From the IMG/VR virus record IMGVR_UViG_2908567220_000008, positions 1-45,074 of that record: 45,074 nt of DNA. One strand, 5' to 3'. Shown one piece after another: positions 39,465-41,607 of this stretch. Below the pieces are notes generated by a model that searched no databases, was not told the DNA's origin, and was given only the letters and a program-made list of their open reading frames with translations. Position 1 is the first letter of the stretch; each line of letters starts with the position of its first letter. This DNA is from a virus (Duplodnaviria; Heunggongvirae; Uroviricota; Caudoviricetes). The position numbers were made by a program, and so were the translations under genes.

Positions 39465-40250
39465 ATGAGAAAAGTTGGCAGTACAACTGACACCGCTGAT
39501 GCTAATGGTGAATACACTAATGGTAATGTCGCTAATGGTATTTCACCGACAATAATTAATGCTGAGATGATGAATACCTTTCAGCGTGAGCTGGTAAACG
39601 TTGTTGAGGGCGCGGGGCTTGAGCTTGATCCTGATGATGATTCACAGGTTCATAAAGCGATTGGTGGCGGTCGCCTGCTTAATATTGTCACCTTTACGAA
39701 GTCAGGGACTTACACTCCAACTAAAGGGACGAAAAGAGTGCGGGTGAAAGTTTGGGGAGCGGGGGGAGGTGGCCAGAATGCTCCAGTTAGTGTGGGCGCA
39801 TCTGGAGGTTGTGCTGGTGGATTTTCGGAAGGGTTATTTAATATTTCTGATAACGAAACTATATCTGTGACGATAGGTACTGGTGGCAGTGCTGTTGCTG
39901 CTGGTGTCTCGTCTAAAGGCGGGAATGGTGGTGATACAAGGTTCGGGAGTTTAATCTCAGCTACTGGAGGGAGTGGTGGCGGGGCTACAGTTCCTGCTGG
40001 AGGTATCGGAAGTGGCGGGAACATTTTAAATATTACTGGCGGAATATCTCAAGGTGGTCTGTATTATGGTTCTGATGCTTTTATTGGCGGGGCTGGAGGA
40101 TCTGCATTTTCATCAACGGGTGGCAATGGCCACTTCGGTAGTTCTGGCGATGATGGCGGTTTCCCCGGCTCAGGTGGTGCCGGGGGGAATGGTAACTATT
40201 CATCAGGAAAAGGAGCGAATGGTTTAGTTTACCTTGAAGAGTTTTCCTGA
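39465..40250 (+). CDS. Glycine-rich tail fibre protein
   Basis: 261 aa; C-terminal two-thirds is Gly/Ser-rich repeats (GAGGGGQ, GGSGGG, GGAGGS), ending GANGLVYLEEFS. Confidence 0.55.
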   Translation: MRKVGSTTDTADANGEYTNGNVANGISPTIINAEMMNTFQRELVNVVEGAGLELDPDDDSQVHKAIGGGRLLNIVTFTKSGTYTPTKGTKRVRVKVWGAGGGGQNAPVSVGASGGCAGGFSEGLFNISDNETISVTIGTGGSAVAAGVSSKGGNGGDTRFGSLISATGGSGGGATVPAGGIGSGGNILNITGGISQGGLYYGSDAFIGGAGGSAFSSTGGNGHFGSSGDDGGFPGSGGAGGNGNYSSGKGANGLVYLEEFS

Positions 40251-41320
40251 TTATTTTTGCTTTGAGCGTCCGCCCTTATTTTTGCTCTAATTTTAATTAG
40301 TGGCTTGTCTATTAATATTACACAAACGATCCCAAGTGCAATTGATATTGGGTAGCCTAATAAAAAGATGGATAAGCCACGATTTTCACCACCAATAGCA
40401 AGCCATGCTAGAAATCCACCAAAATATTGACAAAGAAAAATTGGATAGGCCAGGTCACCAAACCACTTGAGTATTTTCTCAAGATGTATGTTTGTCTTTA
40501 TTTTTAATAATACCAGGGTTGTAAACAATGCTATTACATTATTGGTGTAGTAAAGTATTATGTTGTACTGACCTAATGCATTAATTGTATATAAATGCCA
40601 ATTGGTAATAAAAATCCCGATGCAAATAAATGTTATTAAAAAAGCTTTGTGTGGAGAAAGATACATAGCTTTGAACTTTCTATGGGCAAAATAACCCAGA
40701 GAACCCATGCTAAAAGGAAGTGTTGCAGCAAGGAATGGGAAATACGCCATATCAAAAGAATGGTGTACTACATATACGTAAGCATGATAAAGCAGTGAAA
40801 GCAGAATCGACGTAATGGCTGTAAATTTATTTCGGGCTATGAAAAGCCACAATAAAAAATAACATGTTATCTCAACACCCACTGACCATGATGATGTGAC
40901 TATTCTGAATCTATTACCATCAATAGCAAAGTGATAAATGGATGAAAAGGCACCGAATGGATTTGCTACAGCATTATCAGAAAGGAAAGCCCAGGGGAAG
41001 ATTAAGAGGTTTCCTAATAAATCTCCAGGTAAGAAATTGCCTGTCCAGTTTGAGTGGAATTCCTTTGCGGATGGAATTAATTTTATAATAAGAAAGCCCA
41101 TGACGAGAAAAAATATATATGCCGGGAATAACCTCAGTATTCTATTTTTCCAAAACATAGAGAAGTTGAACTTGTATGTTTCATGCAAAATGTATGTTAT
41201 TAAAAAACCACTAATAACATAGAAGCAATTCACTGCAAAGTTGCCAAGTGCAGGTATGCGAGCCGTTAAGTGAAAAGCAATGACGCACGATGCCAAAAAA
41301 AACCTTATTAGGCCAAGCAT
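40229..41320 (-). CDS. Acyltransferase-3 family membrane protein (O-antigen acetylase-like, Oac-type)
   Basis: 363 aa with about 10 predicted TM helices, typical of acyltransferase family 3; AT-rich; opposite strand, within the fibre region. Confidence 0.75.
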   Translation of the reverse strand: MLGLIRFFLASCVIAFHLTARIPALGNFAVNCFYVISGFLITYILHETYKFNFSMFWKNRILRLFPAYIFFLVMGFLIIKLIPSAKEFHSNWTGNFLPGDLLGNLLIFPWAFLSDNAVANPFGAFSSIYHFAIDGNRFRIVTSSWSVGVEITCYFLLWLFIARNKFTAITSILLSLLYHAYVYVVHHSFDMAYFPFLAATLPFSMGSLGYFAHRKFKAMYLSPHKAFLITFICIGIFITNWHLYTINALGQYNIILYYTNNVIALFTTLVLLKIKTNIHLEKILKWFGDLAYPIFLCQYFGGFLAWLAIGGENRGLSIFLLGYPISIALGIVCVILIDKPLIKIRAKIRADAQSKNNQENSSR

Positions 41321-41607
41321 TATTTTATCTCCGCGCCAATATCGCGCATTTTATTTATTACATTGTTAAGTTGCTCATCAGACAGAACAAGCTGAGCTGC
41401 AATATAAAACAGTATGTGTCTTGACATTACCCTGGGGCTCTCTCCGCCAGTGTATTTCCGCCATTGGCTATCGCTGGCTACACCTGCGAGCCCTGCCATT
41501 TGGTTTCCGGAGTAGTTTATTGCGGATTTCAGTCTGGCTAAATCTTCCTGCGTTGGAGGAGTGTATTTATTTATTAAAATCATTCTCTTACTTAACCGTT
41601 TAAACAC
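41320..41607 (-). CDS. Small protein upstream of the acyltransferase, possible HTH DNA-binding protein
   Basis: 95 aa; stop overlaps the acyltransferase ATG; segment GNQMAGLAGVASDSQWRKY looks HTH-like (weak). Confidence 0.4.
   Translation of the reverse strand: MFKRLSKRMILINKYTPPTQEDLARLKSAINYSGNQMAGLAGVASDSQWRKYTGGESPRVMSRHILFYIAAQLVLSDEQLNNVINKMRDIGAEIK

Follow-up and report, generated by a model that had tools for sequence, protein, structure and literature searches.

An acyltransferase-3 and HTH gene pair in the tail-fibre module of an Escherichia coli prophage is a candidate lysogenic-conversion operon associated with O9-family strains

Two genes for a standalone acyltransferase-3 (AT3) membrane protein and a small XRE-type HTH protein lie on the minus strand among the tail-fibre genes of the window, the whole 45,074-nucleotide stretch of DNA analysed here. 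The window includes an integrase gene at positions 1-1260, and the host phage is taken to be an integrase-type, contractile-tailed E. coli prophage in which the pair would belong to the host-range (fibre) module. The explanation favoured here, with a probability of roughly 0.55, is that the pair forms a two-gene lysogenic-conversion operon in which glycan acetylation and receptor masking are matched to the adjacent fibre.

The ORFs of the AT3 gene (40229-41320) and of the small HTH gene (41320-41607) were both recovered by ORF calling in the window, on the strand and at the positions given in the original prediction. As also described there, they sit between two fibre genes of the opposite orientation, namely fibre 1 (39465-40250, plus strand; 261 aa), which matches Pfam Gly_rich_2 and PHROG tail-fibre families, and fibre 2 (from 41685, plus strand). 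The 3' ends of the convergent AT3 and fibre 1 genes overlap by 22 bp. Coupling of the two minus-strand genes was likewise confirmed, as the TAA stop of the small gene overlaps the ATG of the AT3 gene (TAATG), with GGAG 8 nt upstream of that ATG. However, the length of 95 aa first given for the small gene was revised. Its ORF does run on to GTG 41607, which would give 95 aa, but homologues are nearly all 87 aa, the profile alignment begins at residue 9 and PGAP annotates 87 aa; hence ATG 41583 is the start and the gene spans 41320-41583. The pair is AT-rich, as had been noted (the window has a GC of 0.521, the AT3 gene 0.352 and the small gene 0.428), but this does not set it apart from the structural genes around it: the GC3 of the Gly-rich fibre 1 is 0.328 against 0.327 for the AT3 gene, and that of fibre 2 is low too. 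Low GC is a property of the entire fibre module and not of the pair alone.

The 363-aa product of 40229-41320 matches Pfam Acyl_transf_3 (PF01757) with an E value of 2.3e-15 and a score of 56.9 bits (cut-off 31), residues 4-336 aligning with profile positions 6-323 of 326. This is the sole Pfam match, and no SGNH domain was found in the protein. The PHROG family phrog_3333 'O-acetyltransferase' also matches (E 1e-21), and phrog_6705 'O-antigen acetylase' matches weakly (6e-7). AT3 proteins are characterised by a bundle of ten TM helices with a longer loop between TMH3 and TMH4, an R/K-X10-H motif in TM1, RXXR in the first cytoplasmic loop, and V-x-x-F-F-x-(I/V/L)-S-G-(F/W/Y). In the AF2 model (pLDDT 92, pTM 0.91), the protein from the window has ten long helices, in agreement with its hydropathy peaks, and a long loop at residues 82-143, and the model stops after helix 10. 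The motifs R6-X10-H17, V30-N-C-F-Y-V-I-S-G-F39 (with one F replaced by Y) and R60-I-L-R63 are invariant or at least 90% conserved among 27 homologues, out of 84 homologues found, and E150 is conserved in the 27 as well. The family match, the roughly ten predicted TM helices and the motifs bear out the assignment as a polytopic acyltransferase-3 protein, and the gene almost certainly encodes a real AT3 enzyme.

Assignment to a named enzyme was not obtained. The NCBIfam search returned no family for either the AT3 or the HTH protein. A tblastn search of 50,697 phage records gave a best match of 28% identity, to an uncharacterised Vibrio phage gene, and none of the characterised O-antigen acetylases was detectably close. 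Neither a sequence search of the PDB nor Foldseek with the AT3 model gave a meaningful match; to our knowledge no AT3 structure has been solved, and the Foldseek result is uninformative for this reason. At the DNA level, deposited phages gave no near-identity match to the fibre region, and plasmids gave none to the cassette in distant mode.

Selection on the AT3 gene is purifying, and decayed prophages have kept it. Comparison with the allele of strain EC20 revealed 11 synonymous and 4 non-synonymous differences (dN/dS ~0.1). The ORF is intact in all five sequences compared (the window, 22F46, HS, 20KM2222 and EC20) and is annotated as an ordinary CDS in 32/32 carriers; in HS it is ECHS_RS10305, with the product WP_000901073.1. 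The cassette is also intact in the prophage remnants of 22F46 and EC20, and in the window despite destruction of fibre 2 by an IS3-family element, whereas the prophage of 20KM2222 looks intact as a whole.

Fibre 1 consists of a conserved N-terminus (residues 1 to about 75-90) and a Gly_rich_2 C-terminal domain, and its 3' half is restricted to the 32 E. coli cassette carriers. By blastn, the window and the Klebsiella pneumoniae prophage loci L099-L101 share 98.7-99.2% identity up to position 39735, no DNA match between 39736 and 41123, and ~88% identity from 41124 to 42061. The exchanged block (39736-41123) thus comprises fibre 1 from about codon 90 to its end and the AT3 gene from about codon 66 to its end. 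The protein identities between the K. pneumoniae prophage and the window follow the same pattern, being 99.6% for gp48, 98.7% for the fibre-1 N-terminus and 97.7% for the HTH protein, versus 37.8% for the fibre-1 C-domain and 48.7% for AT3. The converse is seen in locus L093, which has an unrelated baseplate yet shares 77% identity in the fibre-1 C-domain and 65% in AT3. On these alignments, the fibre-1 C-terminal domain and the body of AT3 appear to be swapped as one block, a co-variation that is seen in few loci. In E. coli, Klebsiella, Pantoea and Pseudomonas, AT3 genes of this clade are always found in contractile-tail modules, in convergent orientation to the last short fibre or fibre-assembly gene, and the same slot in Serratia is occupied by more distant AT3s.

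The cassette was found in 32 of 5,426 complete E. coli genomes. Twenty of the carriers were examined (the other 12 were not typed) and all 20 are O9-family, two of them being assigned by strain name; the O9-family background is 202-292 of the 5,426 genomes (3.7-5.4%). The carriers span at least three integration sites and several fibre-2 types. Phage host range and shared ancestry both confound this association with O9.

Modification of a surface polysaccharide is indirectly supported by the O9-family restriction of the examined carriers, the co-swapping of the AT3 body with the fibre-1 C-terminal domain, the purifying selection on AT3 with its retention in decayed prophages, and the occurrence elsewhere of the same HTH ahead of other glycan-modifying enzymes (see below). 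AT3 probably acts on a surface glycan, and the chances that this would be the O-antigen are about even. In the proposed mechanism, a sigma-70 promoter (41644-41616, minus strand) would drive the HTH gene and then, by translational coupling at TAATG, the AT3 gene, in the direction opposite to the late tail operon. If AT3 works like its characterised counterparts, it would accept an acyl group, probably acetyl, from cytoplasmic acyl-CoA and pass it through the bundle of about ten helices, and a sugar of an envelope polysaccharide would be esterified at the periplasmic face. The most likely acceptor would be the O9-family polymannan O-antigen or another glycan common to O9 strains. We know of no O-acetylated mannan among the published O9 structures, and a literature search found no report of O9 O-acetylation. 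The modification would be matched to the receptor-binding C-terminal domain of the adjacent fibre 1, so that the phage's own receptor is masked on lysogens and both superinfection and re-adsorption of progeny are blocked.

Carriers that were checked also have group 1 capsule loci. Accordingly, the acceptor of AT3 might be not the O9 O-antigen but the group 1 K polysaccharide, as capsule or in its LPS-linked form, and the link to O9 would then solely reflect the occurrence of group 1 capsules in strains of O8/O9 type. Both HS and EC20 have wzi-wza-wzb-wzc loci, close homologues of AT3 occur in K. pneumoniae prophages, and carbohydrate-esterase variants of fibre 2 suggest acetylated polysaccharide receptors. 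The N-terminus of fibre 2 is conserved among carriers and its C-terminus is variable; in HS it carries a SASA esterase domain, and elsewhere it is annotated as TolB-like, SGNH/GDSL, sialate O-acetylesterase or CotH (the SGNH/GDSL esterases being known by annotation). However, in the two K loci compared, that of HS is initiated by wbaP and includes rfbBADC and that of EC20 is initiated by wcaJ, whereas the AT3 proteins of the two strains are 98.9% identical. Fibre 2 varies with the K locus, but AT3 and the fibre-1 C-domain do not. A capsular acceptor is considered unlikely.

A lysogenic role for AT3 is also to be weighed against one mainly in the lytic cycle, in which modification of the receptor on dying cells and on their debris would keep released virions from being trapped. 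Such a role would suit a gene that is tightly embedded in the fibre module, lacks a terminator and overlaps fibre 1, and detachment of progeny was raised as a benefit by Bujak et al. (2020; PMC7556043). However, the gene runs opposite to the late operon from a sigma-70 promoter of its own, an arrangement that fits expression by the host polymerase in lysogens, and it is intact in prophage remnants unable to make virions. A mainly lytic function is considered improbable, and the lytic and lysogenic roles are not mutually exclusive.

Standalone AT3s that act on conserved envelope glycans exist, such as WecH on ECA and OpgC on periplasmic glucans, and the same 99%-identical AT3 allele is found in prophages with different fibre-2 specificities. 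AT3 could thus modify ECA, periplasmic glucans, LPS core or peptidoglycan for a benefit in fitness or lysozyme resistance unrelated to the receptor. This would predict no serogroup restriction, yet every examined carrier is O9-family, and it leaves the joint exchange of the AT3 body and the fibre C-domain unexplained. Furthermore, there is no NCBIfam match to a named AT3 enzyme, and AT3 is without the SGNH domain present in the peptidoglycan enzyme OatA. Little credence is given to this explanation. That the pair is a functionless passenger, or a defence or toxin-antitoxin-like module that makes no catalytic use of the AT3 fold, is very improbable: the HTH has sub-threshold similarity to antitoxin-type Xre and Aca HTH domains and the operator half-site is degenerate in the window, but dN/dS is low, all catalytic motifs are conserved, the AT3 ORF is preserved across the sequences compared and the annotated carriers, and PADLOC gave no match for AT3, the HTH protein or the small TM protein of Serratia phage BZS1.

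The small gene upstream of AT3 had been proposed as a partner of the enzyme, and the idea of a missing periplasmic or membrane partner of standalone AT3s has been raised in the literature. This role was rejected. The 87-aa protein combines an HTH signature with the lack of any hydrophobic segment (maximum KD19 0.89), and an AT3 gene does not directly follow the HTH gene in 78 of 80 species-level loci. It is predicted to be a soluble XRE-type HTH protein, neither membrane-bound nor catalytic, and a DNA-binding regulator. Source annotations of its homologues are XRE/HTH regulators. The protein from the window scores 12.2 bits against HTH_31 (cut-off 27); among 28 homologues, HTH_31 is matched by 18 (best E 1.4e-4) and Xre-like-HTH by 15, all below threshold. 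PDB profile matches are weak (AcrIF24 HTH domain, E 0.078; Aca3, E 0.62). The AF2 model has five helices with a pLDDT of only 60, a fold search with it was uninformative, and the HTH assignment rests on the profile searches and not on this model. In other species, the HTH gene leads genes for GT2, GT1/4, hexapeptide acetyltransferase, Wzy_C, GDSL/SGNH and GH43-like proteins. A HigB/HigA-like toxin-antitoxin reading of the HTH gene with the small ORF upstream of it in relatives was also considered; that ORF encodes a coiled-coil, tail-anchored protein, gave no match in PADLOC or elsewhere, and is absent from the window.

A consensus scan placed a sigma-70-type promoter at 41616-41644 on the minus strand, with TTGACG (41644-41639), a 17-nt spacer including GCCCC-TTCA-GGGC, and TAACAT (41621-41616). 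The hexamers are common to the E. coli, Klebsiella, Serratia and Lonsdalea loci. As a stricter pattern gave only 3 matches, a relaxed pattern was used for counts; it has 24 matches in 1.8 Mb versus 0.15 in shuffles. All 24 share the strand of the HTH gene and precede its start by 97-365 nt; within the window, the one match is at 41644. In the 24 loci, a 7+7 palindrome that overlaps the -10 hexamer is conserved, with compensatory arm changes in Pseudomonas, and the HTH protein would most likely autoregulate the promoter through it. TAGCCCC-N3-GGGGCTA is an example of a perfect palindrome of this kind. In the window the left arm is degenerate and only the right arm is kept; the promoter reads as a degenerate copy of the conserved palindrome-bearing form, and autoregulation may have been lost given this degeneracy. 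As to phase variation, there is only a single GATC site near the promoter, and a T8 run within AT3 codons 7-9 does not vary in length among the five sequences compared.

The description of the pair as a moron held in part. It has its own conserved promoter, but no terminator-like site was found downstream of the AT3 gene, and the 3' end of that gene overlaps fibre 1. Nor was an empty-site relative found in E. coli: a synthetic junction query gave no contiguous match in the 5,426 genomes, where the flanks of the cassette occur only together with the cassette. Across genera, the slot is usually filled by another AT3.

The same arrangement was reported for p24-p26 of Serratia phage vB_SspM_BZS1 by Bujak et al. 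(2020; PMC7556043), who put forward the same glycan-modification hypothesis as an untested proposal. Like the window, BZS1 has a Mu-type baseplate (gp44-48), a short fibre, an antisense HTH-AT3 pair, and a long fibre with a predicted esterase. Its p25 HTH protein is 66% identical to that of the window, and identities are 83% for gp48, 76% for the fibre-1 N-terminus and 75% for the first 48 residues of fibre 2. In contrast, the AT3 proteins share only motif-level similarity (E 0.018) and the fibre-1 C-domains are unrelated. BZS1 also has a 57-aa gene with a C-terminal TM segment (p26) and a hairpin upstream of the HTH gene, both missing from the window.

Among enzymes of established function, Oac of Shigella phage Sf6 (OacA) and of E. 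coli O157 phage phiV10 are, like AT3 of the window, standalone temperate-phage AT3s with RXXR, encoded opposite to structural genes. They acetylate the O-antigen that serves as the phage receptor, and superinfection is blocked. The AT3 gene of the window shares this context, being a temperate-phage gene antisense to structural genes and beside receptor-binding genes. However, the Oac genes come from podovirus or other genome contexts for which an HTH leader has not been described, they have a proven chemistry where that of AT3 is predicted, and neither was detected from AT3 by tblastn at E<=1e-3. Salmonella OafA and OafB (BTP1 GtrC family II) and Staphylococcus aureus OatA share the AT3 domain, R/K-X10-H and RXXR, but are AT3-SGNH fusions, having an 11th TM helix and, at the C-terminus, a periplasmic SGNH domain that is essential. 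OafB is prophage-borne and, as with Oac of Sf6 and phiV10, that of BTP1 blocks its own phage. Legionella Lag-1, an O-acetyltransferase acting on a homopolymeric O-antigen that is ABC-transporter-dependent, like O9, has the V-x-x-F-F-x-(I/V/L)-S-G-(F/W/Y) motif; it differs in being chromosomal and in acting on a different sugar. The HTH protein may be likened to C proteins of restriction-modification systems and to Aca regulators, which are small XRE-type HTH proteins that share an operon with a cargo gene, often with overlapping stop and start codons, and which bind a palindrome in their own promoter; the likeness is one of function and not of sequence membership, DNA binding by the HTH protein being predicted.

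A broader and tentative reading, at somewhat worse than even odds, joins an HTH expression platform with glycan-related cargo to an AT3/fibre unit that is swapped tail-to-tail. The platform may consist of the HTH gene, the palindrome promoter and, in most loci, a conserved hairpin preceded by the gene for a 57-aa tail-anchored membrane protein, and may range over Enterobacterales, Pseudomonas and Burkholderiales with AT3, SGNH, hexapeptide acetyltransferase, GT2, GT4, Wzy-like and GH43-like cargo. In the swap unit, one recombination may exchange receptor specificity together with the matching receptor-masking enzyme, which would explain a change of host range without loss of self-exclusion. 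If so, the O9 polymannan, which is made by the ABC-transporter route, would be expected to have an O-acetylated form not reported before. Should AT3 acetylate O9 mannan, ~0.6% of sequenced E. coli, including the widely used commensal model strain HS, would show an unrecognised O9 variant, which would matter for serotyping, phage susceptibility and O-antigen-based reagents; AT3 would then also be a further example of a standalone AT3 modifying an ABC-transporter-dependent O-antigen in the periplasm. The HTH leader with its palindrome would also provide a simple marker for glycan-conversion cassettes in prophages. No current view is overturned, as phage AT3 conversion genes have long been known and the arrangement was already noted in BZS1; what is new here is the carrier count, the O9-family restriction, the block swap, the HTH promoter and palindrome with its other cargo, and the selection on AT3.

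In the window, fibre 2 is represented by its N-terminal 427 codons only (41685-42965, plus strand). Intact relatives have 664-727 aa, and the intact 703-aa fibre 2 gene of strain 22F46 aligns at 99.7% up to 42965. Homology to this reference is then lost until 44222, which corresponds to a reference position 1,107 bp further on. In between lies an IS3-family element (42966-44221, plus strand) with transposase ORFs at 43022-43330 and 43327-44193; it cuts fibre 2 short, and a deletion of 1,107 bp is associated with it.

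The window carries two ORFs on the minus strand, an acyltransferase-3 (AT3) gene at 40229-41320, coding for 363 aa, and a small ORF at 41320-41607, both exactly where the original prediction had placed them. The pair consists of real, intact genes. The TAA of the small ORF overlaps the start codon of the AT3 gene (TAATG), and GGAG is found 8 nt 5' of the AT3 ATG. Homologues of the small protein are almost all 87 aa long, the profile alignment starts at residue 9, and the PGAP annotation is also 87 aa; thus, the true start is the ATG at 41583. As predicted, the AT3 gene lies antisense between two tail-fibre genes, fibre 1 (39465-40250, plus strand; 261 aa, Gly_rich_2) and fibre 2 (from 41685, plus strand). 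The GC contents of 0.352 for the AT3 gene and 0.428 for the small gene are low against 0.521 for the window overall, but this does not set the pair apart, as the GC3 of the adjoining glycine-rich fibre gene (0.328) equals that of AT3 and the second fibre is low as well. The pair is best explained as a conversion cassette, led by a helix-turn-helix (HTH) gene, in which AT3 acylates a polysaccharide on the surface of O9-type E. coli and is matched to the binding domain of the adjacent fibre. The general idea of a serotype-converting acetylase was judged right; the acceptor sugar, acetyl donor, timing of expression and exclusion phenotype are what we infer.

Assignment to the AT3 family holds. 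Pfam Acyl_transf_3 covers nearly the full length of the protein (E 2.3e-15, 56.9 bits; cut-off 31), which also matches phrog_3333 'O-acetyltransferase' (E 1e-21). The published AT3 signatures were checked in an alignment of 27 homologues, where R6-X10-H17 in TM1, V30-x-x-F-Y-x-I-S-G-F39, R60-x-x-R63, E150 and GDLxYP are invariant or at least 90% conserved. An AlphaFold model (pLDDT 92, pTM 0.91) shows ten long helices, with residues 82-143 forming a long loop, in keeping with the standalone-AT3 topology described for Oac. No SGNH domain is present, and the protein is thus not a fusion of the OafA/OafB/OatA type. A solved AT3 structure for comparison was not found. Neither tblastn against 50,697 phage records nor NCBIfam, which gave no match, revealed a characterised enzyme detectably close to it; the best tblastn match was an unannotated Vibrio phage gene (28% identity), and Sf6 Oac and phiV10 Oac were not retrieved. 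Comparison with the allele of strain EC20, the most divergent in E. coli, gave 11 synonymous and 4 non-synonymous codon differences over 241 and 851 sites, respectively (dN/dS ~0.1). A T8 homopolymer occurs at codons 7-9 near the 5' end of the ORF (41290-41300, minus strand; AGG TTT TTT TTG). Its length is identical in the five sequences compared, which gives no sign of phase variation.

The small gene had been described as an upstream partner of the AT3 gene. Its product includes no hydrophobic segment and appears to be a regulator-like HTH protein rather than a membrane partner. Homologues are named XRE/HTH regulators by their sources; HTH_31 and Xre-like-HTH match 18 and 15 of 28 family members, respectively, all below threshold, and PDB profile searches matched the HTH domains of AcrIF24 and Aca3 best (weak, E 0.078-0.6). 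AT3 is immediately 3' of the HTH gene in only 2 of 80 species-representative loci, and the genes downstream of it fall into 69 different clusters. The operonic cargos recognisable by Pfam are GT2, GT1/GT4, hexapeptide acetyltransferases, Wzy_C, GDSL/SGNH hydrolases, GH43-like proteins and AT3. The gene coupled to the HTH gene in Burkholderia phage phiE131 encodes an SGNH/GDSL hydrolase and is likewise convergent with the tail fibre. Since the recognisable cargos are glycan-modifying enzymes, the HTH gene heads a family of surface-glycan-modifying cassettes, which supports such a role for the window AT3 independently of AT3 homology. In many species (loci L013-L092, L093 and L110, e.g. L110:4790-4963), the HTH gene is preceded, at a distance of 30-50 bp, by a conserved 57-aa gene whose product combines a coiled coil with a C-terminal TM helix. 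This gene is followed, ~31 nt before the HTH start, by a conserved hairpin GCCCC-loop-GGGGC-T5; the hairpin was seen in 17 loci, and its loop sequence differs among them. Neither this gene nor its hairpin is present in the window, and a PADLOC search with the 57-aa protein gave no match.

A consensus scan located a sigma-70-like promoter (TTGACG, 17 nt, TAACAT) at 41644-41616 on the minus strand, with the same hexamers in the E. coli, Klebsiella, Serratia and Lonsdalea loci. The relaxed motif TTGAC[A/G]..TAGC[A/C]CC-N3-GGGGCTA-NNN-T gave 24 matches in 1.8 Mb, as compared with 0.15 in shuffles, and all 24 were on the HTH strand, 97-365 nt before an HTH start. Its core is a 7+7 palindrome extending into the -10. 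The two arms are altered in concert in Pseudomonas (TAGGCCC-AAT-GGGCCTA), as would be expected for the operator of a dimeric HTH protein. The window promoter retains both hexamers (-35 and -10) and the right arm; because the left arm is degenerate, the autoregulation that we infer from the palindrome may be weakened there. The AT3 gene overlaps the 3' end of fibre 1 by 22 bp and no terminator was found downstream of it in the window; late tail transcripts must therefore traverse the cassette antisense to reach fibre 2. Such transcription would favour silencing of the cassette in lytic growth and its expression in lysogeny.

In the contractile-tail modules of E. coli, Klebsiella, Pantoea and Pseudomonas, AT3 genes of this clade (42-65% identity) invariably converge on the final short-fibre or fibre-assembly gene, which they either abut or overlap; in Serratia, more distant AT3s fill the same slot. 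A K. pneumoniae prophage shares with the window gp48 (99.6%), fibre-1 residues 1-75 (98.7%), the HTH protein (97.7%) and the promoter DNA (98.4%), whereas the fibre-1 C-domains are just 37.8% and the AT3s 48.7% identical. DNA similarity ends at 39735 and restarts at 41124, which places the ends of the exchanged block near codon 90 of fibre 1 and codon 66 of AT3. The reverse is seen at locus L093, whose baseplate and fibre N-terminus are unrelated but whose fibre-1 C-domain (77%) and AT3 (65%) are the most similar. Where AT3s are at most ~50% identical, the fibre C-domains are unrelated. In this small sample, the pattern fits the joint movement of a receptor-binding domain and the receptor modifier matched to it.

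Phage AT3 enzymes that acetylate O-antigen and block the phage encoding them are classical; they include Sf6 Oac, SfII OacD and those of phiV10 and BTP1 (OafB). None of the components matched a known defence system. The arrangement itself is known from Serratia phage vB_SspM_BZS1, in which AT3 (p24), HTH (p25) and a small protein with a C-terminal TM (p26) are encoded in antisense, flanked by a short fibre on one side and, on the other, by a tail protein predicted to contain a deacetylase (PMC7556043). Its authors offered the same hypothesis as 'highly speculative' and had 'no clue' on p25 and p26 (PMC7556043). Identity between the window and BZS1 amounts to 66% for the HTH protein (p25) and to 75% over the first 48 residues of fibre 2 (p27), whereas AT3 and p24 share only motif-level similarity.

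Among 5,426 complete E. coli genomes, 32 carry the cassette, always chromosomal, single-copy and at least 98.8% identical; it was absent from the plasmids searched. A synthetic cassette-less junction query found no empty site in these genomes, and the fibre-1 3' half and fibre-2 N-terminus are restricted to the same 32. Hence, the whole block rather than a free insert is the inherited unit in E. coli, and the term moron fits loosely: the cassette has its own promoter but neither a terminator nor an empty site. Carriers use at least three integration sites, yodB (HS), kch/tonB (22F46, 20KM2222) and a third.

The O9 polymannan cluster, present in carrier HS, is found at ≥80% coverage in 202 of the 5,426 genomes (3.7%) and with any match in 292. 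Thirteen carriers are among the best 60 O9-cluster records listed, two more are O9:H10 by strain name, and EC20, PCN061, strain 127, 13P484A and the outlier 20KM2222 were O9-family when checked directly. Thus, 20 of 20 carriers examined, out of 32, are O9-family.

The main rival is that AT3 acts on the capsule. Group 1 capsule loci and fibre-2 tips are not the same in HS and EC20, whereas AT3 and fibre 1 of these two strains are almost identical. These differences and identities hint that fibre 2 tracks the capsule (K) type and suggest that fibre 1 and AT3 track something constant in the carrier hosts. Among carriers, the fibre-2 C-terminus is a SASA carbohydrate esterase in HS and of the SGNH/GDSL, CotH-like or TolB-like propeller type elsewhere. 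These interchangeable C-termini follow a conserved N-terminus of ~130-150 aa (L002:8286-10280, L113:2935-4350, L104:15435-17618, L001:8286-10397).

The window is a nearly complete E. coli prophage. A tyrosine integrase (1-1260, minus strand) is at its left end, near two neighbouring DNA methyltransferase genes (C-5 cytosine methylase and MT-A70 family; 1984-3482, minus strand), followed by YqaJ/RecT and O/P-type replication genes. A low-GC patch (0.38-0.45) in the early region (7394-9033, minus strand) encodes an overlapping DUF3037 protein (272 aa) and HipA-like kinase (274 aa) and may be a second accessory or defence-type insert. An STnc100 sRNA (Rfam RF02076, 70.6 bits), tRNA-Asn(gtt) and tRNA-Arg(tct) (17107-17656, plus strand) precede the head, sheath, tube and tape-measure genes and a Mu-type baseplate (gp44-48). 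The right end reads gp48/YmfQ, fibre 1, the antisense AT3 and HTH genes, fibre 2, small genes and a Pin-like recombinase, beyond which the intact relative 20KM2222 has the host genes yciI and tonB.

An IS3-family element (42966-44221) interrupts fibre 2 in the window, and the affected region takes in 44222-44750 too. Relative to strain 22F46, the window also has a deletion of 1,107 bp, at a cost of ~277 codons at the C-terminal end of fibre 2 and ~92 codons at the start of the gene after it. Fibre 2 can probably not be made by this prophage, though the HTH-AT3 pair is intact. The prophages of 22F46 (integrase, a recT fragment, then gp46 onwards) and EC20 (cut by IS1 inside gp48) are remnants; fibre 1, AT3 and HTH are all intact in both. 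An ORF running off the window end (44856-45074, plus strand) terminates in ...GGDGADGILILEEFA, resembling the fibre-1 C-terminus ...GANGLVYLEEFS, and matches a partial 'glycine-rich domain' pseudogene of 22F46; it could represent another, alternative copy of the fibre tip close to the Pin-like recombinase.
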